Source of the DNA: a virus
Lineage: Duplodnaviria > Heunggongvirae > Uroviricota > Caudoviricetes
Reading direction: 5' to 3' (one strand)
DNA: 22,138 bases
Virus record (IMG/VR): IMGVR_UViG_3300045988_101675
Under the pieces are notes generated by a model that saw only the letters and a program-made list of their open reading frames with translations, searched no databases and was not told where the DNA came from. Shown in pieces: positions 1-22,138 of this stretch (position 1 is its first letter; each line of letters starts with the position of its first letter). A program made the translations under genes and the position numbers.

Positions 1-95
1 CTGACTTGGTAGCCCCCGCCGTAGCGGTATTTTCTGTTGTATTACAATTAGTTAAATTACTCATATCGCTTCAATTGGCTCTAGTTAACTCTGGT

Positions 96-1091
96 TTATG
101 GACGCATTATGGACATTCCTGACACCGGGTTAAGAGTCACTGCATCTTGTAAGAAATCCGGTGCAAAGTGTGCGTAGGTCATAGTTTGCTGAATGTTAGA
201 ATGACCCAGGATGCGCTGCAATGTGATTATGTTACCTCCATTCATTATAAAATGTGTGGCAAATGTATGCCTCAAAACATGCACTGCCTGTCCGTCAGGT
301 AAATCGGGTTTTACTTCCCTGAGAGCGTTGCGCACTTTGTAGTAACTGGCATTAAAAAGCCTGCCTGAATTTTTGGTCTTGATCCGTTTAATCAGGTCCT
401 GCGAAACGGGAATTGTCCTGCGCTTTCCGTTTTTAGTTTTCATAAACGTAACCATCTGGTTAATGATGTGTTCAGCTTTTAAATTAGACACTTCACTCCA
501 GCGTCCACCAGTAGAAAGGCAGACCAGAGTCGCATTTAATTCATCACCATCGAGCATGGATAACAGCCGTGTAATCTCTTCACTGGACAAAAAAGCCATT
601 TCTGTAACAGCTTCACGTAATCGCTTAACCTCACGGAACGGGTTGTGAGAATGGTATTCACCGGCGTCAATTAACTTGGTGAACATCCCGCTCATTATTG
701 CCAGATGCCGATTTACGCTGGCTGGTTTTAGACCATCGTTCATCATTACAACGCGATAATCAGTTATCGTTTTCTTTGTTAGCTGGTCAGCTCTGGACAC
801 TCCCATTTCTGCAAATTTGGCGATTATTGTCGTCAAACGCCCCCGTTCAATATCTCCACGCTCATGTGATTTTCCGTGATATATCCACCATCTGCCTAAC
901 AACTCTGTAAGAGTTCGGCGGTCGGCTGGCTTCTCCAGCCACTCTTTGTTGTGGTAGTTAACCAGTACATGACGTTCGAATGCTTGAGCTTCACCTTTAG
1001 TTTTAAATTTCCGCCTGATACGTTTTCCATCTGCACCCTGCGGTCTGACGTCCACTTCATAACGACCATCATCGAGCTTTTTAATAGACAT
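96..1091 (-). CDS. int: Phage tyrosine integrase (site-specific recombinase), P2 Int-like
   Basis: 331-aa ORF. C-terminal catalytic region carries the tyrosine-recombinase signature (HVLRHTFATH ... LGHSNIQQTMTYAHF). Sits at the prophage edge, next to and co-oriented with the repressor gene, as in P2. Confidence 0.92.
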   Translation of the reverse strand: MSIKKLDDGRYEVDVRPQGADGKRIRRKFKTKGEAQAFERHVLVNYHNKEWLEKPADRRTLTELLGRWWIYHGKSHERGDIERGRLTTIIAKFAEMGVSRADQLTKKTITDYRVVMMNDGLKPASVNRHLAIMSGMFTKLIDAGEYHSHNPFREVKRLREAVTEMAFLSSEEITRLLSMLDGDELNATLVCLSTGGRWSEVSNLKAEHIINQMVTFMKTKNGKRRTIPVSQDLIKRIKTKNSGRLFNASYYKVRNALREVKPDLPDGQAVHVLRHTFATHFIMNGGNIITLQRILGHSNIQQTMTYAHFAPDFLQDAVTLNPVSGMSIMRP

Positions 1092-1184
1092 AAAGCCCTC
1101 CGATGACGCTGTTTACTTCTACTACTTGAAAATTAATGCAATTTTCTTTCGTACATTTACTGCATACATATGCTGAATAAATCG

Positions 1185-1496
1185 TCAGCCAGTCTTTTGG
1201 TCTGAGTGGTGCAAGGTTGTTGAGTCTTGCCCAATGTGCGCGAGCGCCGGGGCTATTTGTCCGCCAGCGGGATCAGTTTCATCAAACATGAACCAGTCAC
1301 GGTACTTGCGAAATCTTTCAGGCTTGAAAAATTTCATGCCTGCGTCAAAAGACATCTTTACTTTTCCCTGCTCATATCCAGCATAGGTGTTGTAGTTAAT
1401 TCCAGTTAATTCAGCAACTTGCTTCCTTGTCATTCTTTCTGACTCCCGAATAAGTGCGAGTTTCTCTGCTTGAGATGTGATTTGTGTATTTGACAT
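1185..1496 (-). CDS. C: Immunity repressor, P2 C-type
   Basis: Trimmed from the 119-aa track ORF to the internal ATG at 1494-1496 (MSNTQITSQ...), giving 103 aa. The C-terminus GQIAPALAHIGQ...HSDQKTG matches my memory of the P2 C repressor; the N-terminal half is divergent. Divergent from cox, upstream of int. Confidence 0.8.
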   Translation of the reverse strand: MSNTQITSQAEKLALIRESERMTRKQVAELTGINYNTYAGYEQGKVKMSFDAGMKFFKPERFRKYRDWFMFDETDPAGGQIAPALAHIGQDSTTLHHSDQKTG

Positions 1497-1518
1497 GAAT
1501 TGTCGTATCTCGTAATTT
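1490..1518 (+). promoter_or_regulatory. Candidate early promoter Pe: TTGACA (1490-1495), 17-bp spacer, TAATTT (1513-1518), with flanking direct repeats GTCGTAT (1502-1508) and GTTGTAT (1521-1527) as possible C operators
   Basis: Near-consensus sigma70 -35 and -10 hexamers read directly from the sequence. They face cox and overlap the C start codon. P2-type repressors bind direct repeats flanking the Pe -10 element. Confidence 0.5.
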
Positions 1519-1600
1519 ATGTTGTATGCGACACACCAGAACAACGCAGAGCGGCTTCAAATAGCTCTGGTTGAATGGCACCAAAGTTGAGGATATCAAA

Positions 1601-1957
1601 ATGAGTATTGGATCAGAAATGAATAACGATGTTGGAGAAAAAGTATCTGATCTCACAAAAAGTAAAAAATGTGACATCAAACTTGCAGCCGCACCGTCGG
1701 ATTTGCTCTCGAAAGAGGGATTTGCTCTTTACATCGGTAAGACGCCTCGTGCTGTTGCTGAAATGGCGAAAGCAGGCAAGTTACCAGCCTTTTATATGAC
1801 GGACCCATTAAAGCCGGGCGGTCATGCTGAGTTATGGATTAATCGCCGTGAGTGGGACAAGTACGCAGCCCAACTAGTTGATGAAGCTCCGACAGAATGG
1901 CATGACTGGAAAAATCGCATTAGTTACAGCAAATCAAGACATGGCCGTGCGGCTTAA
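1601..1957 (+). CDS. cox: Cox-like excisionase / early transcriptional regulator
   Basis: Track ORF 1571..1957 begins at TTG; trimmed to ATG 1601, which has GAGGA 8 nt upstream. The segment GKTPRAVAEMAKAGKLPAFYMTDP resembles the P2 Cox DNA-binding region as I recall it. First gene of the rightward early operon. Longer than P2 Cox (118 vs 91 aa). Confidence 0.75.
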   Translation: MSIGSEMNNDVGEKVSDLTKSKKCDIKLAAAPSDLLSKEGFALYIGKTPRAVAEMAKAGKLPAFYMTDPLKPGGHAELWINRREWDKYAAQLVDEAPTEWHDWKNRISYSKSRHGRAA

Positions 1958-1967
1958 GGTGGAAAGG

Positions 1968-2138
1968 ATGAACGAGCCTCGTTGTATTGCTCAGTTATTG
2001 CGTAACGAAAGCCCCAGGGCGATTGACTTCACCATTACCCACGGTAAGGGGCGTAAGGGAATCATTATCCGCACCAAAAAACAGAGTCCGTTAAAAAAGG
2101 CTCTGACCTTTCTGAAAAGCCGGAGGGTATGGAAATGA
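1968..2138 (+). CDS. Small basic hypothetical protein (57 aa), in the position of P2 orf78
   Basis: Trimmed from track ORF 1878..2138, which would overlap cox. ATG 1968 follows the cox stop and has AAGGTGG upstream. Its stop overlaps the B start (ATGA at 2135-2138), suggesting translational coupling. Confidence 0.45.
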   Translation: MNEPRCIAQLLRNESPRAIDFTITHGKGRKGIIIRTKKQSPLKKALTFLKSRRVWK

Positions 2139-2635
2139 CAGTGATGACGCTCAATCTCGTTGAAAAACAACCAGCAACTATGCGCCGGATAATTGGTAAG
2201 CATCTTGCCGTCCCTCGCTGGCAGGAGACATGTGATTATTATAATCAGATGATGGAGCGCGAACGGCTAACGGTTTGCTTCCATGCACAGTTAAAACAGC
2301 GTCATGCAACGATGCGTTTTGAAGAAATGAACGACGTCGAACGTGAACGGCTGGTTTGTGCAATTGATGAATTGCGTGGGGCATTCTCAAAACGCCGTCA
2401 GGTCGGTGCAAGTGAGTATGCATATATTAGCTTTTTAACTGTCAGTCAGCGCCGTACTTTATTTATGCACGCACGACTGACAGAAAAAGAATTTAATCAG
2501 CCATACTGGCGAATTAATGAAGAGTCATGTTACTGGCGTGATGCTTTATTCCGTGCATTACGTGAATTATTCAGTCTGTTTGAATATGCACCGACAATTC
2601 TGACGTCGGTAAAACCAGAGCAATATCTGCATTAA
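2135..2635 (+). CDS. B: P2 gpB-like replication protein
   Basis: ATG 2135 with GGAGG 8 nt upstream gives 166 aa, the length I recall for P2 B. Position between cox and A matches P2. Protein identity is from synteny and size, not a recognised motif. Confidence 0.7.
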   Translation: MTVMTLNLVEKQPATMRRIIGKHLAVPRWQETCDYYNQMMERERLTVCFHAQLKQRHATMRFEEMNDVERERLVCAIDELRGAFSKRRQVGASEYAYISFLTVSQRRTLFMHARLTEKEFNQPYWRINEESCYWRDALFRALRELFSLFEYAPTILTSVKPEQYLH

Positions 2636-2656
2636 GTAATTAACCAAAGTTTTTAA

Positions 2657-2685
2657 CGCACTTAATCGTGCGGGGCTTCTTTTTG
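2657..2685 (+). terminator. Weak stem-loop followed by a T-tract; possible attenuator after B
   Basis: CGCAC (2657-2661), loop TTAATC, GTGCG (2668-2672), then GGGCTTCTTTTT. Only a 5-bp stem. Confidence 0.25.
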
Positions 2686-2698
2686 CCTGGAGAAAGTC

Positions 2699-2911
2699 AT
2701 GCATACAGTTTCTGAAAATCAGTGCGGTAAATACGCATTAATGCTGCAACAGGCCAGAACCGAAGCACAGGCCGATGCAGCAACGCGCTTTTCGTCTCAT
2801 CTTGATGCCATGATTCGCCACATCACAAAGGCGGAGTTATCCCGCGTGGAGATAGTCGAGTTGCTCAGTCAGGAGTCTGCCAAATTCCATAATCTAGGAC
2901 TCAATAAATAA
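2699..2911 (+). CDS. Hypothetical early protein (70 aa)
   Basis: ORF with GGAGA 5 nt upstream of the ATG. Co-oriented in the early operon. Confidence 0.6.
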
Positions 2912-2925
2912 CAGGGGAGTTGGAG

Positions 2926-3171
2926 ATGACAAATACAAAATGGTTCAGGAAACGCTTAACAGATTATCAACTTTCATTACTTAAAAAATTAGATGACAAG
3001 ACTCCACTACATCCTTCAAGCGATGTCTTCCGCTCCTGTCCTAGTCGTGTGGAAAAAGCATTTATAGCAATGGGGAAATGGGGGCTTGTGACCAAATCAA
3101 GAGAAGGTTTCTGTATTACCGATAATGGCCGGGAAATGATTGATTCTGCGGAGAGGGCATATAGCGAATGA
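2926..3171 (+). CDS. Hypothetical early protein (81 aa)
   Basis: Track ORF begins at GTG 2920; ATG 2926 has GGGGAG 6 nt upstream. Stop overlaps the next start. Confidence 0.6.
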   Translation: MTNTKWFRKRLTDYQLSLLKKLDDKTPLHPSSDVFRSCPSRVEKAFIAMGKWGLVTKSREGFCITDNGREMIDSAERAYSE

Positions 3172-3458
3172 AAAATATATTGCTTAATAACTGGCTGAAG
3201 ATTTCAGTCATGAAAAATGGTGATTTGTCGCTAGCTGATATTAAACGCGATAAAAACACTGGGGATATGGTGGAATCAACTATAGCCATTTATGCGGATA
3301 AATTAAATCTCCTGTCTGATGTGGTCAATTTACTTGTTAAACGCGCTGTATTTCATAAGCAAATTTCATCCGTGGATGAACTGACAAAATTAACGACAGA
3401 AATCGCCAGCTATTGCGCTGATGAATTTAAGAAGCTGAACGACAAAAGGAGCTGGTAA
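3168..3458 (+). CDS. Hypothetical early protein (96 aa)
   Basis: ATGA overlap with the upstream stop and TAATG overlap with the downstream start. Confidence 0.6.
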   Translation: MKNILLNNWLKISVMKNGDLSLADIKRDKNTGDMVESTIAIYADKLNLLSDVVNLLVKRAVFHKQISSVDELTKLTTEIASYCADEFKKLNDKRSW

Positions 3459-3682
3459 TGCCGGACAACGTAGATTTTATTCAGGAACAACAGGCTGAAT
3501 TACTGGAGCGCCAGATTAACGCGGCAAGGGTAAAACATTGCGGTGTTTCTGCGCTGGTTTGCGAAGAGTGTGACGCGCTAATACCTGCTGCCCGTCGTGC
3601 GGCTTATCCGTCAGCCACGCGTTGTGTTTCCTGTCAGTCAGTCTTTGAAGCAAAAAACAAACATTACCGGAGAATGGCATGA
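3458..3682 (+). CDS. TraR/DksA-family C4 zinc-finger protein (P2 orf83-like)
   Basis: 74 aa with two CxxC pairs (CEECDALIP ... CVSCQ), typical of phage TraR-like proteins. Located just upstream of A as in P2. Confidence 0.8.
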   Translation: MPDNVDFIQEQQAELLERQINAARVKHCGVSALVCEECDALIPAARRAAYPSATRCVSCQSVFEAKNKHYRRMA

Positions 3683-3954
3683 GCATTCGTATTGAAATTG
3701 GCGAACGTTATGTGGTTACCAGTGACAGCTTCCAGTTTATTCTCCACGAGAAAAAGAGAGCGGAAAGCGGTAAAAACGCCGGTCAGGAGTGGCTGGCGGT
3801 GGTTGGTTATTACCCGAAATTAAGCCAGCTCGTTTCCGGCCTGATGCATCACGATATTCTGACCGGAAGCGCAAAATCTTTTGCCGATTTAAACGCGCAG
3901 GTTGAGCAACTCAGCAAGCGTTGCTCAGAGGCTTTTGGCTCACATGGCCGTTAA
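3679..3954 (+). CDS. Hypothetical early protein (91 aa)
   Basis: ORF in the early operon. Its 3' end overlaps the A start by 11 nt. Confidence 0.6.
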   Translation: MSIRIEIGERYVVTSDSFQFILHEKKRAESGKNAGQEWLAVVGYYPKLSQLVSGLMHHDILTGSAKSFADLNAQVEQLSKRCSEAFGSHGR

Positions 3955-6229
3955 AGCCTCCGGGCGTTTTGTCCCTCCGTCAGCATTTGCCGCAGGCACC
4001 GGTAAGGCGTTTACCGGTGCTTATGCATGGAACGCGCCACGCGAGGCCGTCGGGCGCGAAAGACCCCTTACACGTGACGAGATGCGTCAGGTGCAAGGTG
4101 TTTTATCCACGATTAACCGCCTGCCTTACTTTTTGCGCTCGCTGTTTACTTCACGCTATGACTACATCCGGCGCAATAAAAGCCCGGTGCACGGGTTTTA
4201 TTTCCTCACATCCACTTTTCAGCGTCGTTTATGGCCGCGCATTGAGCGTGTGAATCAGCGCCATGAAATGAACACCGACGCGTCGTTACTGTTTCTGGCA
4301 GAGCGTGACCACTATGCGCGCCTGCCGGGAATGAATGACAAGGAGCTGAAAAAGTTTGCCGCCTGTATCTCATCGCAGCTTTTCATGATGTATGAGGAAC
4401 TCAGCGATGCCTGGGTGGATGCACATGGCGAAAAAGAATCGCTGTTTACGGATGAGGCGCAGGATCACCTCTATGGTCATGTTGCTGGCGCTGCACGTGC
4501 TTTCAATATTTCCCCGCTTTACTGGAAAAAATACCGTAAAGGACAGATGACCACGAGGCAGGCATATTCTGCCATTGCCCGCCTGTTTAACGATGAGTGG
4601 TGGACCCATCAGCTTAAAGGCCAGCGTATGCGCTGGCATGAGGCGTTACTGATTGCTGTCGGGGAGGTCAATAAAGACCGTTCTCCTTATGCCAGTAAAC
4701 ATGCCATTCGTGATGTGCGTGCGCGCCGCCAGGCAAATCTGGAATTTCTTAAATCGTGTGACCTTGAAAACAGAGAAACCGGCGAGCGTATCGACCTTAT
4801 CAGTAAGGTGATGGGCAGTATTTCTAATCCTGAAATTCGCCGGATGGAGCTGATGAACACCATTGCCGGTATTGAGCGTTACGCCGCCGCAGAGGGTGAT
4901 GTGGGGATGTTTATCACGCTGACCGCGCCGTCAAAGTATCACCCGACACGTCAGGTCGGAAAAGGCGAAAGTAAAACCGTCCAGCTAAATCACGGCTGGA
5001 ACGATGAGGCATTTAATCCAAAGGATGCGCAGCGTTATCTCTGCCGTATCTGGAGCCTGATGCGTACGGCATTCAAGGATAATGATTTACAGGTCTACGG
5101 TTTGCGTGTCGTCGAGCCACACCACGACGGAACACCGCACTGGCATATGATGCTTTTTTGTAATCCACGCCAGCGTAACCAGATTATCGAAATCATGCGT
5201 CGCTATGCGCTCAAAGAGGATGGCGACGAAAGAGGAGCCGCGCGAAACCGTTTTCAGGCAAAACACCTTAACCGGGGCGGTGCTGCGGGATATATCGCTA
5301 AATACATCTCAAAAAATATCGACGGCTATGCACTGGATGGTCAGCTCGATAACGATACCGGCAGGCCGCTTAAAGATACTGCCGCGGCTGTTACCGCATG
5401 GGCGTCAACGTGGCGCATCCCGCAATTTAAAACGGTTGGTCTGCCGACAATGGGGGCTTACCGTGAACTACGCAAATTGCCTCGTGGCGTCAGCATTGCT
5501 GATGAGTTTGACGAACGCGTCGAGGCTGCACGCGCCGCCGCAGACAGTGGTGATTTTGCGTTGTATATCAGCGCGCAGGGTGGGGCAAATGTTCCGCGCG
5601 ATTGTCAGACTGTCAGGGTTGCCCGTAGCCCGTCGGATGACGTTAACGAGTACGAGGAAGAAGTCGAGAGAGTGGTCGGCATTTACGCGCCGCATCTCGG
5701 CGCGCGTCATATTCATATCACCAGAACGACGGACTGGCGCATTGTGCCGAAAGTGCCGGTCGTTGAGCCTTTGACTTTAAAAAGCGGCATCGCCGCGCCT
5801 CGGAGTCCTGTCAATAACTGTGGAAAACTCACCGGTGGTGATACTTCGTTACCGGCTCCCACACCTTCTGAGCACGCCGCAGCAGTGCTTAATCTGGTTG
5901 ATGACGGTGTTATTGAATGGAATGAACCGGAGGTCGTGAGGGCGCTCAGGGGCGCATTAAAACACGACCTGCGAACGCCAAACCGTCAGCAAAGAAACGG
6001 AAGCCCGTTAAAACCACATGAAATTGCACCATCGGCCAGACTGACCCGGTCGGAAAGAATGCAAATTACCCGTATCCGCGTTGACCTTGCTCAGAACGGT
6101 ATCAGGCCGCAGCGATGGGAGCTTGAGGCGCTGGCGCGTGGCGCGACCGTAAATTATGACGGGAAAAAATTCACGTATCCGGTCGCTGATGAGTGGCCGG
6201 GATTCTCAACAGTAATGGAGTGGAAATGA
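3944..6229 (+). CDS. A: Rolling-circle replication initiation endonuclease gpA (HUH superfamily)
   Basis: Track ORF begins at TTG 3902; trimmed to ATG 3944 (MAVKASGRFVPP...), giving 761 aa, the P2 A length as I recall it. Contains the HUH-like PHWHMMLF motif and the two-tyrosine active-site segment GYIAKYISKNIDGY. Confidence 0.93.
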   Translation: MAVKASGRFVPPSAFAAGTGKAFTGAYAWNAPREAVGRERPLTRDEMRQVQGVLSTINRLPYFLRSLFTSRYDYIRRNKSPVHGFYFLTSTFQRRLWPRIERVNQRHEMNTDASLLFLAERDHYARLPGMNDKELKKFAACISSQLFMMYEELSDAWVDAHGEKESLFTDEAQDHLYGHVAGAARAFNISPLYWKKYRKGQMTTRQAYSAIARLFNDEWWTHQLKGQRMRWHEALLIAVGEVNKDRSPYASKHAIRDVRARRQANLEFLKSCDLENRETGERIDLISKVMGSISNPEIRRMELMNTIAGIERYAAAEGDVGMFITLTAPSKYHPTRQVGKGESKTVQLNHGWNDEAFNPKDAQRYLCRIWSLMRTAFKDNDLQVYGLRVVEPHHDGTPHWHMMLFCNPRQRNQIIEIMRRYALKEDGDERGAARNRFQAKHLNRGGAAGYIAKYISKNIDGYALDGQLDNDTGRPLKDTAAAVTAWASTWRIPQFKTVGLPTMGAYRELRKLPRGVSIADEFDERVEAARAAADSGDFALYISAQGGANVPRDCQTVRVARSPSDDVNEYEEEVERVVGIYAPHLGARHIHITRTTDWRIVPKVPVVEPLTLKSGIAAPRSPVNNCGKLTGGDTSLPAPTPSEHAAAVLNLVDDGVIEWNEPEVVRALRGALKHDLRTPNRQQRNGSPLKPHEIAPSARLTRSERMQITRIRVDLAQNGIRPQRWELEALARGATVNYDGKKFTYPVADEWPGFSTVMEWK

Positions 6230-6681
6230 TGGCAAAAATTCACGAGGTAAAGCTGCACGCAAAATATTTTGACCTTGTGCTGGAAGGAAAGAAACGCGCA
6301 GAGTTTCGGAAAAATGACCGTAATTATGAGCGCGGGGACACATTGATTTTGCATGAATGGGTGCAGGGTGTGTTTACGGGGCGAAAGGTTGAAGCCCGGA
6401 TAACAGATGTTACTGACCTGTCAGACTGGCTGGAAGATTATGTCTTGCTAAGTATTGAGCTGCTTAATACGGGCGCATATAAGATTGTGAACTGGAAAGA
6501 ACTTAGTGAGCGTGGCCTGGTATTCAGAATTAATCATGAAATTATGCATCAGCTCGGCCTTGCTGTTATGTATGAACCAGAGACGGGGATGTCTGGCGGG
6601 GCAATGGTTGCCACGGATGGAGTATGGAACTATTCAGATGAACAGATGGAGCGTGCACAGCAAAACGGGTGGCTCGGATAA
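6226..6681 (+). CDS. ASCH/DUF3850-like domain protein with a C-terminal extension
   Basis: 151 aa. The N-terminus (EVKLHAKYFDLVLEGKKRAEFRKNDRNYERGDTLILHEW) resembles ASCH/DUF3850 domains as I know them. GGAG lies 5 nt upstream. The start overlaps the A stop, suggesting translational coupling. Confidence 0.7.
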   Translation: MMAKIHEVKLHAKYFDLVLEGKKRAEFRKNDRNYERGDTLILHEWVQGVFTGRKVEARITDVTDLSDWLEDYVLLSIELLNTGAYKIVNWKELSERGLVFRINHEIMHQLGLAVMYEPETGMSGGAMVATDGVWNYSDEQMERAQQNGWLG

Positions 6682-6735: not shown

Positions 6736-6894
6736 ATGGCCATTGTTCACCGTCTACAGCAGATTATGGTCAACGAAAATCTGACGCCCGATGAACTAGT
6801 CGGGTGTGCCGAAATAGTCCGGGATAATTACGGGCGACTTAACTATATCGGTATCGGTCAGTCCAGAGTTGCGCCACCACCACGCAGACGATAG
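6736..6894 (+). CDS. Possible small ORF (52 aa)
   Basis: ATG-initiated ORF read by hand, below the 60-aa track cutoff, ending 5 nt before repeat copy 1. No clear Shine-Dalgarno sequence. Confidence 0.25.
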   Translation: MAIVHRLQQIMVNENLTPDELVGCAEIVRDNYGRLNYIGIGQSRVAPPPRRR

Positions 6895-6965: not shown

Positions 6966-7123
6966 TTGACAGTCATATTTTTACTGCGTTGGTGCTGGTT
7001 TTTGACGGTTGAAAGGAGTTAGCCAGGAGAGCAAAAGCCAACAACTTACAAATATTCAAAAGTAAGCTTCCTGTTGCTAACATAAGGTCGATTTTTTATG
7101 TGGATGATGCAAAAAGGATAGCT

Positions 7124-7855
7124 ATGGATATTGTAATCGCTTTTCTATCACTCGCTTTTTTCGTTGCTTTTTTCATCGGGTTAATCAAGCCATCACTGGT
7201 GCGGATGCCAAACCGTAAACGTGCAAGTGCGGTTTATCTCGGAGGTAGTTTTGCATTGAGCATAATTGGTTCAATACTCTACCCAACAGAAAAAAGCCAG
7301 CCAGTTGCTAAAACTGAAACAGCAACCGTAGCAGAACACCAGGCTCAAAAAACATTCGAATATACTGAAAAAACACTCAAGGAATATCGGAACGAGCCAA
7401 AGAAGACGCGACACGATATTGTGAATAGTTACATTAACTTTAAGAAAGTGCCAGTCACCGCATCAGATGCATTTTATGCCTGCATGAGTGAGTATACATT
7501 TACCAAAGATGATGAGTTGAAACTCGGTGATGTTCTTGGGTGGTGCTTTAATGATTATGAAAATGACCCGAATTCATTAAACAATAAAATCAATCTTGAT
7601 ACATTTCAGAGTAATTTTAGTGGTTGGGATGGTTCTTATCGGCCATTGGAAAAATTAATTAAAGATAATATGAACGATGATTCATCTTATAAACATGTGT
7701 CAACGGTATATCATTTGGTTTTGAATAAAGACCCGCACGCCATTGTGAAAACCACGTTTCGCGGCACTAATGCTTATGGTGGAGTGGTAAAGCAGACCGT
7801 AGCGGCGCGCGTCAACGTGCGAACGGGTGAGGTCGATTCGATACTCGACAATTAA
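7124..7855 (+). CDS. Accessory membrane protein of unknown function: two predicted N-terminal TM helices and a ~180-aa C-terminal domain
   Basis: Track ORF begins at GTG 7100; ATG 7124 has AAGGA 5 nt upstream. Hydrophobic segments IVIAFLSLAFFVAFFIGLI and AVYLGGSFALSIIGSILY. AT-rich, unlike the backbone. No recognisable motif. Confidence 0.7.
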   Translation: MDIVIAFLSLAFFVAFFIGLIKPSLVRMPNRKRASAVYLGGSFALSIIGSILYPTEKSQPVAKTETATVAEHQAQKTFEYTEKTLKEYRNEPKKTRHDIVNSYINFKKVPVTASDAFYACMSEYTFTKDDELKLGDVLGWCFNDYENDPNSLNNKINLDTFQSNFSGWDGSYRPLEKLIKDNMNDDSSYKHVSTVYHLVLNKDPHAIVKTTFRGTNAYGGVVKQTVAARVNVRTGEVDSILDN

Positions 7856-7871
7856 ACAATATAGTGACATA

Positions 7872-7938
7872 CCCCGCCAGTACTGAAACTTGTTTTCAGT
7901 GCTGGCGGGGTTAAACAAAGAGCATCGTGAAGCGTTAG
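7872..7938 (+). repeat. Copy 2 of the 67-nt repeat: stem-loop (7872-7910) plus tail
   Basis: CCCCGCCAGTACTGAAA / CTTGT / TTTCAGTGCTGGCGGGG. Same architecture as copy 1, with the second stem base pair swapped from G-C to C-G. Lies between the two accessory genes. Confidence 0.65.
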
Positions 7939-7963
7939 ATTAAAATCATTTGAGGCAGATAAA

Positions 7964-8626
7964 ATGCTTTGGAAAATAATTTCTTTTTTATTAGTTGGTA
8001 TTTGTATGTTTGCTTTCGGTTTATGGTTAGGCTCTATTCAGGCTGAATGGGCGAAACCAGAGCATAAAGATGCTGTTGCTTATTTAGCAATGATCGGAGG
8101 ATGGGTCTCAGGAATTGCAACGTCAGTCGCAGTAATTATTTCATTGTATGCGACATATCAAGCATCACAGAATAATGTTGAAAAATTAAGTTTAACCTAT
8201 AAGCCTTACTCTAGCGTAGACAAAGAAAATTATTGTGCCAATATTGAGGTTGTAAATTTGCGGAGCGTTCCGGTACATATACAAGAGTTTTGCTTAGAAT
8301 TTAGTGGGATAAATAATCATTTCAACATAAACGAACTAAAAGCAAATGGGAAGGAGATACCGTATTCTTTATACCAAGTAGGAGAGAAATGGGAGTTTGC
8401 CTTCTATCCTTTTGCAAAGCTGGGAAATATGAGGTTCTATAAAAGCTTAAGTGAGAATGGTAATCCAAGTTTTCGTAGTGGTTTCTTTGTGGTTAAAACA
8501 TCAATGAAACAATACAAATTAAGGATACCTAATGAGCTTTTGGAAATTATGAAAATTAGCTATGAAAAGCAAATGGAAATACGGAAGAATTATAAGGAAA
8601 TGCATGGTAAAGAGATGGGCTTTTAA
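7964..8626 (+). CDS. Accessory membrane protein of unknown function: two predicted N-terminal TM helices and a ~150-aa C-terminal domain
   Basis: 220-aa ORF with GAGG 8 nt upstream of the ATG. Hydrophobic segments IISFLLVGICMFAFGLWLG and VAYLAMIGGWVSGIATSVAVIISLY. Very AT-rich. Last gene before cos. Confidence 0.7.
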   Translation: MLWKIISFLLVGICMFAFGLWLGSIQAEWAKPEHKDAVAYLAMIGGWVSGIATSVAVIISLYATYQASQNNVEKLSLTYKPYSSVDKENYCANIEVVNLRSVPVHIQEFCLEFSGINNHFNINELKANGKEIPYSLYQVGEKWEFAFYPFAKLGNMRFYKSLSENGNPSFRSGFFVVKTSMKQYKLRIPNELLEIMKISYEKQMEIRKNYKEMHGKEMGF

Positions 8627-8749
8627 AACGCATTAACAAGCATCAAATTGCATGCGCATCCCTCCCCTGTTGTGTTTGAGCGCTGCCAGTGATGGTGTGC
8701 CTCTGGCGTGTTCGTGCAACTGCATTAAAACCGCCCCATGAAGCGGGCG

Positions 8750-18184: not shown

Positions 18185-18820
18185 ATGAACACTCTCGCAA
18201 ATATTCAGGAACTCGCGCGCGCACTGCGCAACATGATCCGCACCGGCCTTGTCGTCGAAACCGACCTTAACGCCGGTCGCTGCCGTGTGCAGACCGGCGG
18301 CATGTGCACTGACTGGCTTCAGTGGCTGACCCATCGTGCCGGTCGTTCGCGCACATGGTGGGCACCTTCCGTGGGGGAACAGGTGCTGATTCTGGCCGTG
18401 GGCGGTGAACTCGACACGGCGTTCGTTCTGCCGGGGATTTATTCCGGCGATAACCCCGCGCCGTCTGCGTCGGCGGATGCCCTGCATATCCGTTTCCCTG
18501 ACGGGGCGGTGATTGAGTATGAACCCGAAATCAGTGCGCTCACGGTAAGCGGAATTAAAACGGCCAGCGTGACGGCTTCTGATTCTGTTACTGCCACGGT
18601 GCCGGTGGTCATGGTGAAAGCATCAACCCGCATCACCCTGGACACACCGGAGGTGGTCTGCACCAACAGGCTGATTACCGGCACGCTGGAAGTGCAGAAG
18701 GGCGGGACGATGCGCGGCAACATTGAACACACCGGCGGTGAACTCTCATCAAACGGTAAGGTACTGCATACCCATAAACACCCCGGCGACAGCGGCGGCA
18801 CAACCGGGAGTCCTCTATGA
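18185..18820 (+). CDS. V: Baseplate spike protein gpV
   Basis: 211 aa, the P2 V length as I recall it. First gene of the baseplate cluster V-W-J-I. Confidence 0.9.
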   Translation: MNTLANIQELARALRNMIRTGLVVETDLNAGRCRVQTGGMCTDWLQWLTHRAGRSRTWWAPSVGEQVLILAVGGELDTAFVLPGIYSGDNPAPSASADALHIRFPDGAVIEYEPEISALTVSGIKTASVTASDSVTATVPVVMVKASTRITLDTPEVVCTNRLITGTLEVQKGGTMRGNIEHTGGELSSNGKVLHTHKHPGDSGGTTGSPL

Positions 18821-19164
18821 CAGCGCGTTATCTCGGAATGAATCGCAGTGATGGCCTGACTGTCACTGACCTTGAGCATATCAGCCAGAGTATCGGCGAT
18901 ATCCTGCGCACACCGGTCGGCTCACGGGTGATGCGTCGTGATTACGGCTCGTTGCTGGCGTCAATGATTGACCAGCCGCAGACCCCGGCGCTTGAGTTGC
19001 AGATTAAGGTCGCCTGTTACATGGCGGTGCTGAAATGGGAACCCCGCGTCACCCTGTCATCCGTCACCACTGAGCGCAGTTTTGACGGGCGAATGACGGT
19101 CACGTTAACCGGCCAGCACAACGACACCGGCCAGCCACTTTCGTTAACCATCCCTGTGAGTTGA
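18817..19164 (+). CDS. W: Baseplate wedge protein gpW
   Basis: 115 aa. Start overlaps the V stop. Position matches P2. Confidence 0.9.
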   Translation: MTARYLGMNRSDGLTVTDLEHISQSIGDILRTPVGSRVMRRDYGSLLASMIDQPQTPALELQIKVACYMAVLKWEPRVTLSSVTTERSFDGRMTVTLTGQHNDTGQPLSLTIPVS

Positions 19165-19168
19165 AACC

Positions 19169-20077
19169 ATGCCGATTATCGACCTGAACCAGCTACCCGC
19201 ACCGGATGTGGTCGAGGAGCTGGACTTTGAAACCATTCTCGCCGAACGCAAGGCGACACTGATTTCCCTTTACCCGGAAGACCAGCAGGAGGTGGTCGCC
19301 CGTACCCTGACACTGGAATCCGAGCCTCTCGTCAAACTGCTGGAGGAAAATGCTTATCGTGAGCTTATCTGGCGTCAGCGTGTGAATGAGGCCGCACGGG
19401 CGGTGATGCTGGCCTGTGCAGCCGGTAATGACCTTGATGTGATTGGTGCCAATTACAACACCACACGCCTGATTATCACCCCGGCAGATGATTCGACCAT
19501 CCCGCCGACACCGGCAGTAATGGAGTCTGACACCGATTATCGTCTGCGTATTCAGCAGGCGTTTGAAGGTTTAAGCGTCGCCGGGTCGGTGGGTGCCTAT
19601 CAGTATCATGGTCGCAGTGCCGACGGGCGTGTCGCGGATATCTCTGTCACCAGTCCATCTCCGGCCTGCGTCACCATCTCTGTGCTGTCACGTGAGAATA
19701 ATGGTGTGGCATCCGAAGACCTGCTGGCTGTGGTACGTAACGCCCTTAATGGCGAGGATGTCAGGCCGGTGGCCGACCGCGTGACCGTGCAGTCTGCCGC
19801 CATCGTTGAATATCAGATAAACGCCACGCTTTACCTTTACCCTGGTCCCGAAAGCGAACCCATCCGCGCTGCTGCCGTGAAAAAACTGGAAGCGTACATC
19901 ACAGCACAGCACCGGCTGGGGCGCGACATCCGTCTGTCTGCCATTTATGCCGCTTTGCATGTGGAAGGCGTGCAGCGTGTCGAACTGACTGCTCCGCTGG
20001 CCGACATCGTGCTCAACAGTACGCAGGCGTCTTTCTGTACCGAATACCGCGTCGTGACCGGAGGCTCGGATGAGTGA
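19169..20077 (+). CDS. J: Baseplate assembly protein gpJ
   Basis: 302 aa, the P2 J length as I recall it. Confidence 0.9.
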   Translation: MPIIDLNQLPAPDVVEELDFETILAERKATLISLYPEDQQEVVARTLTLESEPLVKLLEENAYRELIWRQRVNEAARAVMLACAAGNDLDVIGANYNTTRLIITPADDSTIPPTPAVMESDTDYRLRIQQAFEGLSVAGSVGAYQYHGRSADGRVADISVTSPSPACVTISVLSRENNGVASEDLLAVVRNALNGEDVRPVADRVTVQSAAIVEYQINATLYLYPGPESEPIRAAAVKKLEAYITAQHRLGRDIRLSAIYAALHVEGVQRVELTAPLADIVLNSTQASFCTEYRVVTGGSDE

Positions 20078-20681
20078 TTCGCGCCTGCTGCCGACCGGCT
20101 CATCACCGCTTGAAGTCGCCGCCGCAAAAGCCTGTGCGGAAATTGAAAAAACGCCGGTCAGTATTCGTGAACTGTGGAACCCGGATACCTGCCAGGCAAA
20201 TCTGCTGCCGTGGCTGGCGTGGTCATTTTCGGTTGACCGCTGGGATGATAAGTGGCCGGAAGCGACAAAACGCGCTGTTATCCGCGATGCGTATTTCATT
20301 CACTGTCATAAAGGCACTATAGGTGCAATCCGGCGTGTGGTGGAGCCGCTCGGCTATCTGATTGAGGTGAGGGAGTGGTGGCAGCTCAACGAGGAGCCGG
20401 GGACGTTCCGTATCGTTGTTGGCGTGCTTGAGCAGGGTATTACCGAAGAAATGTATCAGGAGCTGGAGCGCCTCGTTGCTGATGCAAAACCGGCGAGCCG
20501 CCATCTGACGGGACTGGCTATCAGTTTAAGTACAACCGGCAACATTTTTGCCGGTGCGGGATGCTATCACGGCGACGCCCTGACGGTTTATCCCTACACC
20601 CCGGAGGCCATTATTGTCGGAGGGGATTATTTCCCGGCCTCGGCCATTCATTTAATTGATAACCTGAGAGTAAACGCATGA
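20070..20681 (+). CDS. I: Baseplate assembly protein gpI
   Basis: 203 aa. The N-terminal two thirds fit P2 I by position and context. The ORF is longer than the ~176 aa I recall for P2 I. Confidence 0.85.
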   Translation: MSDSRLLPTGSSPLEVAAAKACAEIEKTPVSIRELWNPDTCQANLLPWLAWSFSVDRWDDKWPEATKRAVIRDAYFIHCHKGTIGAIRRVVEPLGYLIEVREWWQLNEEPGTFRIVVGVLEQGITEEMYQELERLVADAKPASRHLTGLAISLSTTGNIFAGAGCYHGDALTVYPYTPEAIIVGGDYFPASAIHLIDNLRVNA

Positions 20682-21814
20682 CAGTGAAATACTACGCCAT
20701 TCTGACTAATCAGGGCGCAGCACGGCTGGCTAACGCGACGATGCTCGGCAGTAAGCTGAATCTGACGCAAATGGCCGTTGGTGATGCGAATGGTGTCTTG
20801 CCGACACCAGACCCGGCACAGACAAAACTGATTAACCAGAAACGCATCGCGCCGCTGAATCTTCTGAGTGTTGACCCGAACAACCAGAGCCAGATTATTG
20901 CGGAGCAAATCATCCCTGAGAACGAGGGCGGATTCTGGATCCGTGAGATTGGGCTTTATGATGATGAAGGCGTACTCATTGCGGTGGCGAACTGCCCGGA
21001 AACGTACAAACCGCAGTTACAGGAAGGCAGTGGTCGTACCCAGACTATCCGCATGATTCTGGTTGTCACGAATACCGAAGCTATTACGCTGAAAATCGAC
21101 CCGTCGGTGGTACTGGCGACCCGTAAATACGTGGATGATGAAGTCCTGGAATTAAAGCTGTATGTGGATGACCAGATGAGAAACCACATTGTCGCACAGG
21201 ATCCTCATACCCAGTATGCGCAGAAACATAATCCGACATTTACCGGAGAACCAAAAGCGCCGACGCCTGCCGCAGGAAATAACACCACGCGGATTGCGAC
21301 CACTGAGTTTGTTCAGGCCGCTATTACCGCTCTGATTAACGGCGCGCCAGACACGCTGGACACACTGAAAGAAATTGCCGCGGCCATTAACAATGACCCG
21401 AAATTCAGCACCACCATTAACAATGCGCTGTCAGGTAAGCAGCCACTGGATGAGACGCTGACTCATTTGAGTGGAAAGGATGTAGCTGGTCTTCTCACAT
21501 ACCTTGGTTTAAGAGCAAGCGGGCAGTACACCGATAATTTGTTATTTACAGGTCCTGATGGTCTTAAGATTCAGGTGTTTCGCCGGACGCTCGCAAATTT
21601 GACTACTGTCGGTGTAGTAAATTCTGTGCCAGTGACTTTCCCTGTCCCGTTCCCTGTTAATTGCTGGGGCGTTTTTTCTACCAAATTAACATGGGTTCAG
21701 ATAACTAACTCATGCGAGTGGGTAAGCAATACAGGATTTACCGCTCAGGTTATGATGAATATTGCTGTAAATACAAACACCTCAGACGCTATGTTTTTAG
21801 CTATAGGATATTAA
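20678..21814 (+). CDS. H: Tail fibre protein gpH, short variant
   Basis: 378 aa. The N-terminal region (AVGDANGVLPTP ... GFWIREIGLYDDEGVLIAVANCPETYKPQLQEGSGRTQTIRMIL) is P2 H-like. The middle has a tail-fibre repeat motif (NTTRIATTEFVQAAITAL). The C-terminal ~110 aa is AT-rich and distinct. Confidence 0.85.
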   Translation: MTVKYYAILTNQGAARLANATMLGSKLNLTQMAVGDANGVLPTPDPAQTKLINQKRIAPLNLLSVDPNNQSQIIAEQIIPENEGGFWIREIGLYDDEGVLIAVANCPETYKPQLQEGSGRTQTIRMILVVTNTEAITLKIDPSVVLATRKYVDDEVLELKLYVDDQMRNHIVAQDPHTQYAQKHNPTFTGEPKAPTPAAGNNTTRIATTEFVQAAITALINGAPDTLDTLKEIAAAINNDPKFSTTINNALSGKQPLDETLTHLSGKDVAGLLTYLGLRASGQYTDNLLFTGPDGLKIQVFRRTLANLTTVGVVNSVPVTFPVPFPVNCWGVFSTKLTWVQITNSCEWVSNTGFTAQVMMNIAVNTNTSDAMFLAIGY

Positions 21815-21815
21815 T

Positions 21816-22138
21816 ATGAATCGTTTTGTGTTCAGTCCATCTGAGTCCCGTTTTTATGCCATCGAGTGGCAGGCTGATTATGTTGATAATAATTGTTGGC
21901 CACATGATGCCATTAACGTTAGTGACAGCATTTATTATGAGTTTTCCGGCACTCCCCCTACAGGTAAGCAACTTATAACTTTAAATAACATGCCAGCATG
22001 GGGTGATATTCCTCCACCTACACGAGAAGAATTAATTGTCGCTGCTGATGTGGAGAAGCAAAAAAGAATAGATTTAGCCAATGATTACATGAACGGTAGG
22101 CAATGGCCTGGTAAAGCAGCTATTGGTCGTCTGAAAGG
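21816..22138 (+). CDS. G: Tail fibre assembly chaperone gpG-like, 5' partial (runs off the window)
   Basis: ATG 21816 follows the H stop. My translation (MNRFVFSPSESRFYAIEWQ ... EKQKRIDLANDYMNGRQWPGKAAIGRLKG) ends in a motif I recognise from tail fibre assembly proteins. Not in the ORF track because no stop is reached. Confidence 0.7.
   Translation, partial: MNRFVFSPSESRFYAIEWQADYVDNNCWPHDAINVSDSIYYEFSGTPPTGKQLITLNNMPAWGDIPPPTREELIVAADVEKQKRIDLANDYMNGRQWPGKAAIGRLK

Follow-up and report, generated by a model that had tools for sequence, protein, structure and literature searches.

The 3′ end of the window, by which we mean the whole 22,138-nucleotide stretch analysed here (virus record IMGVR_UViG_3300045988_101675), very probably represents the expressed arm of a Pin/Gin/Cin-type invertible tail-fibre switch in a P2-like (pro483-type) prophage. 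Its tail-fibre gene H fuses a constant shaft in frame to a variable tip at a 26-bp invertase crossover site, and a tail-fibre assembly gene follows directly:

20070 to 20681, + strand: gene I, tail/baseplate protein I, 203 aa, directly 5′ of H (PF09684, E = 1.5e−55)
20678 to 21814, + strand: tail-fibre gene H, an open reading frame of 378 aa, constant shaft plus variable tip in the present orientation
20678 to 21503, + strand: constant part of H (aa 1 to 275), with the baseplate-attachment domain and the shaft motif, common to both fibre forms
21492 to 21517, + strand: 26-bp crossover site of the Gin/Pin/Cin family of serine invertases, left end of the segment (TTCTCACATACC TT GGTTTAAGAGCA)
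21503 to 21814, + strand: variable tip of H (aa 276 to 378), a compact all-beta lectin-like "foot" domain, predicted to be the receptor-binding part
21504 to 22138, no strand assigned: visible 635 bp of the invertible segment (about 1,829 bp in total)
21816 to 22138, + strand: tail-fibre assembly (chaperone) gene, 5′ 107 codons, running off the end of the window (PF02413 Caudo_TAP, phrog_188)

The start of H overlaps the stop of gene I as ATGA, and the protein matches phrog_327 (tail protein, E = 1e−159). Profile searches assign aa 1 to 150 to PF12571, the Phage tail-collar fibre N-terminal domain family (E = 1.1e−62, 210.9 bits, cut-off 23, positions 1 to 150 of 150), and aa 313 to 378 to PF21882. 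The H gene of P2 (NC_001895) spans 2,010 nt and encodes 669 aa, as the preliminary description of this DNA had correctly stated, and P2 G encodes 175 aa. The same description held that the P2-like N-terminal domain and the central motif are retained. The former is true at the level of the PF12571 family, but identity to P2 gpH is only 42% and is confined to aa 26 to 258; H has no full-length similarity to P2 gpH of the kind that a colinear orthologue would have. The motif is indeed kept: NPxFTGxPxxPT...APDxLDTLxExAAAxxNDPxF...GKQP, at H aa 175 to 258 (21200 to 21451), is 44% identical to P2 aa 246 to 329, and in a PDB sequence search with H it matches 9d93 gp4. The two SSATNSTSETLAATPKAV copies of P2 fall in a stretch where H aligns poorly, and the C-terminal 120 aa of H have no similarity to P2 H in a protein comparison. 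In DNA, blastn against P2 gives 94.9% identity over 18185 to 20500 and nothing beyond, so that canonical P2 homology ends inside gene I, which encodes 176 aa in P2. The constant part of H is 95 to 99% identical in DNA to about 700 E. coli records, up to position 21522.

The homology breakpoints around the shaft-tip junction (21492, 21493, 21504, 21510, and 21522) coincide with the crossover site, and the homology shared with hundreds of P2-like prophages ends at 21510 to 21522. A 20-base consensus made only from the half-sites of Mu gix and e14 pix has a single match in the window, at 21492 to 21517 (2 mismatches), and none in 100 shuffles. Within H the site encodes ...L-T-Y-L-G-L-R-A..., and its predicted exchange point is the central TT at 21504-21505. 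A looser 12-base core pattern finds gixL and gixR of Mu at the annotated boundaries of the G segment and, in every relative, picks out a site within H and another next to the invertase. Because this core is calculated to occur by chance about once per 22 kb, we did not count it as evidence alone and used the 20-base consensus. The site pairs of the relatives, located by sequence reading and pattern scan, are in inverted orientation and have the same central dinucleotide. On the opposite strand the right site reads ...ACG TT GGT..., versus ...ACC TT GGT... on the left; the two sites have only 19 of 26 positions in common, which explains why a repeat search of L003, L004, and L001 did not report the pair.

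The partner site lies in contigs that carry the same gene. An identical H protein is found on four independent public contigs, two of which (L005 and L006) are 100% and two (L003 and L004) 99.85 to 99.9% identical to the window over the shared part. Three of the four (L003, L004, and L005, of which L003 and L005 come from COST17-1 metagenome samples) reach beyond the end of the window, and all three have the same order: Tfa (146 aa), an inverted Tfa′ (200 aa), an inverted Collar tip (179 aa), a Resolvase+HTH_7 invertase (197 aa), and then the sheath gene. The two sites are at 6815 and 8642 in L003, at 4119 and 5946 in L004, and at 2377 and 4204 in L005. Since the window stops at 22138, we infer its right site, second arm, and invertase from these near-identical contigs. 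By this comparison, the remainder of the segment would occupy about 22139 to 23332 in window numbering and would comprise the 3′ remainder of Tfa, then a TfaE-like gene (200 aa) and a Collar-type tip, both inverted, and lastly the right site. The invertase of the three contigs (PF00239 and PF02796) is 86% identical to PinE and 79% identical to Gin, has Gin 3uj3 as its best PDB match (E = 4e−94), and has the same N-terminal MLIGYVRVSTNDQ stretch as Gin. The DNA from the site into the 5′ region of the invertase gene is colinear with pinE and gin (74% identity to Mu over 464 nt). The gene of a Din-family invertase is expected to contain, in its 5′ part, a Fis-bound recombinational enhancer. When the segment of L003 is inverted in silico, H becomes an uninterrupted in-frame gene of 442 aa with a PF07484 Collar domain, and a 200-aa Caudo_TAP chaperone gene starts one base after it. 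The second arm and invertase just past position 22138 in contigs with the exact H argue for a programmed two-state switch and not only for a historical swap.

Inversion of this cassette is also seen in natural isolates. The E. coli isolates ZH48 and ZH49, which have similar names, carry a cassette that matches window positions 21523 to 22138 at 99.4% identity and is flanked by the same two sites; its chromosomal position is the same in both isolates, its orientation opposite. The hybrid half-sites, read in this one isolate pair, are exactly those expected for exchange at the central dinucleotide. A second E. coli pair with similar names, Z1323PEC0011 and Z1323PEC0013, has the same cassette in an e14-type element, again at one shared chromosomal position and in opposite orientations. 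Inversion at the tail-fibre locus of E. coli P2-like prophages has been observed experimentally (PMC4272514), and invertases are common at this P2 hotspot (bioRxiv 10.1101/2024.10.15.618418).

These observations bear on the reading closest to that of the preliminary description, namely, a static mosaic in which the tip and chaperone were acquired once and fixed, leaving a single specificity and no switching. The window itself displays one arm only, whose tip allele is rare and lower in G+C, and in TBE6 an ISKpn26 insertion breaks the alternative arm, so that some relatives are effectively one-state. We nevertheless consider a static mosaic improbable, given the intact second arm, partner site, and full-length invertase in three longer contigs with an identical H, the inversion of the same site pair in ZH48/ZH49, and a boundary that matches the crossover dinucleotide to the base. 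The earlier proposal of a swapped receptor-binding cassette is thus right in that the tip and assembly gene are exchangeable and unrelated to those of P2, but the cassette is very probably an invertible arm and not only a static replacement. That the host range differs from that of P2 can fairly be expected.

We propose that the switch would operate as follows. The constant shaft and the variable tip would meet at the 26-bp site, and the segment of about 1.83 kb would contain this tip with its dedicated chaperone and, at the far end and in the opposite orientation, a second chaperone and a Collar-domain tip. The serine invertase would exchange strands at the central TT of the inverted sites and thereby turn the segment around. 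With the promoter and shaft of H unchanged, reading would continue into the other tip, and the shaft would be joined to GGTTTGGGAGAAGGCTCTGCATTACCG... in a 442-aa fibre, with the TfaE-like chaperone behind it. The switch is probably active in this particular prophage as well; the phage should then make two fibre types, of 378 and 442 aa, and a lysogen population would release particles of either of two receptor specificities.

The variable arm also differs in base composition. G+C is 0.520 over 20678 to 21460, 0.421 over 21461 to 21814, and 0.417 over 21815 to 22138, in line with the earlier remark that the downstream assembly gene is AT-rich; GC3 is 0.57, then 0.43 in the tip and 0.32 in the assembly gene. 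The preliminary description had placed the onset of AT-rich sequence at about 21460. The lower G+C is real, but the breakpoint is at 21504/21505, and the drop from 0.52 to 0.42 is spread over about 21400 to 21700; versus P2 itself, divergence begins earlier still, near 20500. Whereas DNA homology is lost abruptly between 21492 and 21522, composition falls gradually over about 300 nt. In a scan of 19000 to 22138, the maximum-likelihood change point is 21386 (2-lnL support, 21124 to 21673). GC skew, which had been suggested as a check, has no clear break across the region; the change registers in the G+C change point and in AT skew, which flips from +0.27 to −0.24 across 21300 to 21600. That the step arose by chance or from a chimeric assembly is exceedingly improbable: equally AT-rich stretches of the same length do make up 8% of those elsewhere in the window, but a change-point gain as large as that observed arose in 0 of 300 block shuffles, and the junction recurs in independent assemblies and complete genomes. 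We counted this reading as already refuted by the shuffles and the independent assemblies. We attribute the compositional step to the variable arm being a horizontally exchanged module of lower G+C.

According to structural modelling, the tip carried by this module is a compact lectin-like domain of about 95 aa, predicted to bind the receptor, and it is a rare allele. The PF21882 (Gp53-like_C) match is marginal (E = 2e−6, 28.6 bits versus a cut-off of 24.9), and the tip has no match in the PDB sequence search. An AlphaFold2 model built on a 27-sequence alignment of distant relatives reached pLDDT 95.1; a model from 9 near-identical sequences, a shallow alignment, gave pLDDT 41.7 and was discarded. 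In Foldseek, the model (a monomer) matched the R1 pyocin fibre foot (6cxb/6cl5, TM 0.81) and AP22 gp53 (4mtm, TM 0.72), as well as H-type lectins. Across the R-pyocin feet (6cxb, 6cl5, and 6cl6) and AP22 gp53, the TM values were 0.81, 0.66, and 0.72 at 17 to 25% identity. The R-pyocin foot is a lectin-fold domain, or lectin jellyroll, proposed to bind LPS sugars (PMC6363177). It shares with the tip its place at the C-terminus of a chaperone-dependent fibre of a P2-type contractile tail; the sequence similarity of the tip to the R-pyocin foot and AP22 gp53 is marginal, and the host of the tip is enterobacterial. Given this likeness in fold, the model points to a surface carbohydrate, such as LPS, as the most likely ligand of the expressed tip.

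In tblastn searches, the 103-aa tip had no match in the phage (50,697 records) or plasmid collections, and at 50% identity its family comes to only 39 representative clusters in a set of 1.84 billion proteins. The top match of the representative search, P0020 (4,561 aa, 87 stretches), was rejected as a tandem-repeat translation artefact whose unit resembles VNSVPVTFPVPFPVNCWGVF by chance. The same tip sits on at least four unrelated shafts, always with the junction at the site-encoded Y/N-L/V-G-L, and e14-type elements carrying this tip cassette exist. The tip seems to move as a unit between elements of at least four kinds, namely, two P2-like lineages, the e14 type, and one further fibre type. 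In a possible route, homologous recombination within the invertase and chaperone genes, which are conserved, would exchange the silent arm, and a later inversion would present the exchanged arm to the resident shaft. Intermolecular exchange catalysed by the invertase appears less likely than this route as the source of the base-precise boundaries.

The ATG of the assembly gene (21816) is one base past the stop of H. The window fragment scores 39.5 bits against PF02413 and the full protein, which is 146 aa long in L003, L004, and L005, scores 93.9 bits (cut-off 22.1). The identity of the chaperone to pro483 Tfa is 60% and to e14 TfaP 56%, and BLASTP found no similarity between the fragment and P2 G.

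With 291 aa fewer than P2 H, the gene could be read as truncated or defective: the prophage would be decaying, and the 378 aa would be what is left of a fibre of about 670 aa. We regard such decay as highly improbable, since the reading frame ends in a complete, confidently folding terminal domain, a cognate chaperone gene starts one base past the stop, four independent contigs carry the identical protein, the pro483 phage record has the same short architecture, and elsewhere the window has a complete late operon of P2 type. In a P2-like prophage, a short H is therefore not to be read as a truncated gene, nor, in the light of the switch, as a fixed host-range determinant: two fibres are very probably encoded, and which of them an assembly displays is arbitrary. 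The crossover site is a natural junction, in frame and precise to the base, where tips can be exchanged together with their chaperones on several fibre scaffolds, and it is relevant to host-range prediction and to phage and tailocin engineering. The tip itself is a small, confidently modelled domain of lectin type that is not known from any isolated phage. More speculatively, and with the odds against it, the tip may recognise a glycan used by no characterised coliphage, and the segment may act as a docking bay for new specificities; if so, it would take in new specificities beyond two-state switching.

Among known systems, pro483, an Escherichia phage of the genus Peduovirus, is 97% identical in DNA up to window position 21522; its H is built in the same short form (399 aa), its segment also has two arms, and its invertase and that of the contigs are 96% identical. 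Its H has 83% protein identity overall and is near-identical up to aa 277, but past the crossover site its expressed tip is wholly different, and a PFP-like patch alone aligns. P2 shares with the window the operon position V-W-J-I-H-G, the family of the N-terminal domain of H, and the shaft motif, and its V to I genes are 95% identical in DNA. In contrast to the window, P2 has a longer and different C-terminal region of H, is without an invertase, and has fun(Z) after G.

Another close layout is that of the invertible P segment of e14, a cryptic prophage of E. coli K-12 (stfP-tfaP / tfaE-stfE / pinE), which has the same part families in the same arrangement. Its pix site at position 4606 of L012 (TTCTCCCAAACCAACGTTTATGAAAA) is identical to the right site here. 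For the second chaperone the identity to TfaE is 90%, for the invertase that to PinE is 86%, and DNA identity is 84 to 90% across tfaE and stfE-pinE. The present switch differs in being joined to a PF12571 H shaft inside a complete tail operon of P2 type; its expressed arm (tip and N-terminal part of Tfa) is unrelated to the StfP tip, and its alternative tip is only 55% identical to StfE. In the G segment of Mu (S/U, S′/U′, Gin), likewise, a 26-bp site within the fibre gene is where a constant N-terminal part meets one of the alternative C-termini; each tip has an assembly gene of its own, the arms are convergent, and the invertase gene (product 79% identical) is directly outside the right site. 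The Mu segment is about 3 kb long, versus about 1.8 kb here, and belongs to a Mu-like and not a P2-like phage; none of the tips or chaperones here resembles Mu S, S′, U, or U′ detectably in sequence. P1, with its C segment and Cin, has the same kind of invertible fibre switch. Given that the inversions of Mu G, P1 C, e14 P, and EPEC P2-like prophages are long established, the switch described here opens no new question and extends this catalogue.

The window carries most of a P2-type prophage, with a repressor-like HTH gene, portal and terminase genes, and a late operon that runs to V-W-J-I-H. The genes needed for orientation are as follows:

96-1091, minus strand, integrase
3902-6229, gpA
20678-21814, tail-fibre gene H (378 aa, ORF intact, start overlapping the stop of I)
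21816 to past the window end, Caudo_TAP tail-fibre assembly protein ORF (start one base after the H stop)

Two plus-strand ORFs between gpA and the portal gene (7100-7855, 251 aa; 7964-8626, 220 aa) sit where the DNA is strongly AT-rich (G+C 0.37-0.40), at the position of the classical P2 old/tin hotspot. Neither has a match in Pfam or PADLOC, and both are candidates for uncharacterised hotspot cargo, possibly for anti-phage defence. Additionally, a 162-aa ORF (6193-6681, plus strand) that overlaps the 3′ end of gpA encodes DUF3850/ASCH and DUF7415 domains.

The preliminary description of a short H with a different, AT-rich tip is confirmed. G+C is 0.52 in the first 783 nt of H, 0.42 in its last 354 nt, and 0.42 in the assembly-gene fragment, with third-position G+C declining from 0.57 to 0.43 to 0.32. 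Given that the P2 reference lengths are 669 aa for H and 175 aa for G, the comparison of 378 with 669 aa was also correct. A single-change-point likelihood scan of 19000-22138 places a step at 21386 (support 21124-21673), which was equalled in 0 of 300 block shuffles. AT skew changes sign across 21300-21600, but GC skew, which had been proposed as the check, has no clear change. Therefore, the compositional step in H is real but gradual, and not abrupt as initially described. Similarly AT-rich stretches of equal length are found at 1-3500 and 7000-8500. The strongest change point of the window is at 8654 (support 8627-8733), where G+C rises from 0.46 in the early genes and hotspot on its left to 0.56 in the late genes on its right, a far larger step than that in H.

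To canonical P2, DNA identity in blastn is 94.9% from V (18185) to ~20500 in gene I, with none after. Full-length colinear identity with P2 H, the alternative that had been raised, is absent: the two proteins are 42% identical in the N-terminal 258 aa only, with 44% in the shaft motif, and the assembly protein is unrelated to its P2 counterpart by BLASTP. Gene I (20070-20681) encodes 203 aa here versus 176 aa in P2, and, together with the stop of P2 homology inside the gene, this suggests that the I C-terminus may have been exchanged jointly with the H N-terminus, its presumed contact partner.

In a megablast search of 20678-22138 that covered 50,697 phage records and 5,426 complete E. coli genomes, the first 753-845 bases of the query matched hundreds of P2-like prophages at 95-99% identity, and the full query was found in 2 genomes only. 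Pairwise blastn comparisons placed five homology boundaries, all within 21492-21522:

21522, end of homology to Escherichia phage pro483
21510, end of homology to the ZH49 fibre shaft
21492, start of homology to the ZH49 silent cassette copy
21493, start of homology to the e14-type copy of Z1323PEC0011
21504, start of homology to the e14-type copy of Z1323PEC0013

The sequence at 21492-21517 is TTCTCACATACC-TT-GGTTTAAGAGCA. A site consensus derived solely from Mu gix and e14 pix half-sites, TTCTCNNAAACCNNGGTTTNNGAGAA, has its single match in the window there, with two mismatches, and no matches in 100 shuffles. A looser pattern finds Mu gixL and gixR precisely where the annotated G segment begins and ends, both e14 sites plus two chance matches in the e14 locus, and, in each other relative examined, exactly two matches, one inside H and one beside the invertase gene. 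The point at which homology breaks is a recombination site. The assembly gene holds another mosaic boundary (~21990-22138, from codon ~59): the first ~58 codons of the gene accompany only the window-type tip, and its later part has 72-79% DNA identity to the assembly genes of numerous phages of Klebsiella, Escherichia, Salmonella, and Citrobacter.

The exact 378-aa H was found on four contigs, whose overlaps are 100% (L005 and L006), 99.92% (L003), and 99.85% (L004) identical to the window. Past H, the three long contigs encode, in order, the assembly protein (146 aa), a convergent second assembly protein (200 aa), an inverted orphan tip with a Collar domain (179 aa), a Resolvase+HTH_7 protein (197 aa), and the tail sheath, a layout also seen in E. 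coli TBE6 and phage pro483. Identity of the invertase is 86% with PinE and 79% with Gin; its top PDB match is Gin (3uj3, E=4e-94), with which it shares an N-terminal MLIGYVRVSTNDQ stretch. On the right, the site TTCTCCCAAACCAACGTTTATGAAAA matches one e14 pix site at every base and on the opposite strand has the central TT of the left site. DNA of the second arm and invertase is 84-90% identical to e14 tfaE and stfE-pinE. In TBE6 (L001, 6153-7894), ISKpn26, an IS5-like element, has inserted into the alternative Collar tip and split it, and one arm of that switch copy is dead.

In-silico inversion of contig L003 between the central dinucleotides links codons 1-275 of H to the other tip in frame, giving a 442-aa product (PF12571 and PF07484 Collar) with a TfaE-like chaperone gene directly after. 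The cassette (21523-22138) is present in 31 of the 5,426 complete E. coli genomes at ≥80% coverage. In the near-identical chromosomes of ZH48 and ZH49, its position is shared but its orientation is opposite: the ZH48 fibre (452 aa) joins the cassette to the shaft, and the ZH49 fibre (516 aa) has the Collar tip instead, which leaves the window-type tip as a 115-aa orphan next to the invertase. Across the four sites of the two strains, half-sites are combined reciprocally, as expected from central-dinucleotide exchange, and both ZH48 sites match those of the window-type phage exactly. Z1323PEC0011 and Z1323PEC0013 form a second opposite-orientation pair, in an e14-type element with pinE. Judged by annotation name, only a proxy for orientation, about one-third of the listed cassette copies are fused and two-thirds orphan. 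The preliminary reading as a swapped receptor-binding cassette, correct in that the cassette is exchangeable and different from that of P2, is incomplete, because the locus is a programmed two-state switch with its second half beyond the window. In the e14-type element (L013, 5492-6265), a LEM-3-like GIY-YIG protein gene follows pinE, where K-12 has mcrA; Z1323PEC0013 has, past the GIY-YIG gene, a gene for a DNA cytosine methyltransferase.

The tip had no tblastn match in phage and plasmid collections. A word-indexed search of 5.8 billion proteins returned 19 clusters, those with a source name all from E. coli, E. albertii, or Citrobacter freundii and many being orphans of ~115 aa. With HMMER, an exhaustive search of 1.84 billion representatives returned 39 matches, one a repeat artefact. 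The match to P0020 (4561 aa, E=7e-209) was rejected as spurious, a tandem-repeat translation (~52-aa unit) with 87 short repeated matches; P0033 (727 aa, 13 short stretches) may be of the same kind. The ENA-derived P0003 (157 aa), with the tip at 99% identity and a precomputed PF00724 (Oxidored_FMN) match upstream, may be a gene-calling or assembly oddity.

An AlphaFold2 model of the tip, from an alignment of 27 diverse relatives, is an all-beta domain (pLDDT 95.1). Its Foldseek matches are the R1 pyocin fibre foot (6cxb, 6cl5; TM 0.81), AP22 gp53 (4mtm; TM 0.72), the R2 pyocin fibre (6cl6; TM 0.66), and H-type lectins (several PDB entries; TM ~0.55). Salazar et al. (PMC6363177) listed these same structural relatives for the pyocin foot, which they proposed to be the LPS-sugar-binding domain. 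Given these modelled similarities, our best guess for the tip receptor is a carbohydrate.

At least four different sequences precede the tip (GLRASGQYTDN...), and in every case the junction is at the site-encoded Y/N-L/V-G-L codons: the window shaft, the ZH48-type shaft, the e14 StfP shaft (P0021, 199 aa), and a 464-aa fibre with P2-like TPKAV repeats (P0022). Gin/Pin-family invertases are known to act within one supercoiled molecule. We suggest that an arm could be exchanged in its silent state, through homologous recombination within the conserved genes for the invertase and chaperone, and that a later inversion would bring the module boundary onto the crossover point.

Sequencing and PCR have demonstrated inversions in EPEC P2-like prophages (PMC4272514), and invertases are reported to be frequent in the P2 Z/fun hotspot (bioRxiv 10.1101/2024.10.15.618418). 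The mapping covered the features that define the Gin/Cin/Pin/Hin tail-fibre inversion systems other than the Fis enhancer, and the switch has each of those covered. This type of switch is already known. Specific to the present case is that a pro483-type shaft is combined with a rare lectin-like tip, a pairing that only 2 of the 5,426 complete E. coli genomes contain.
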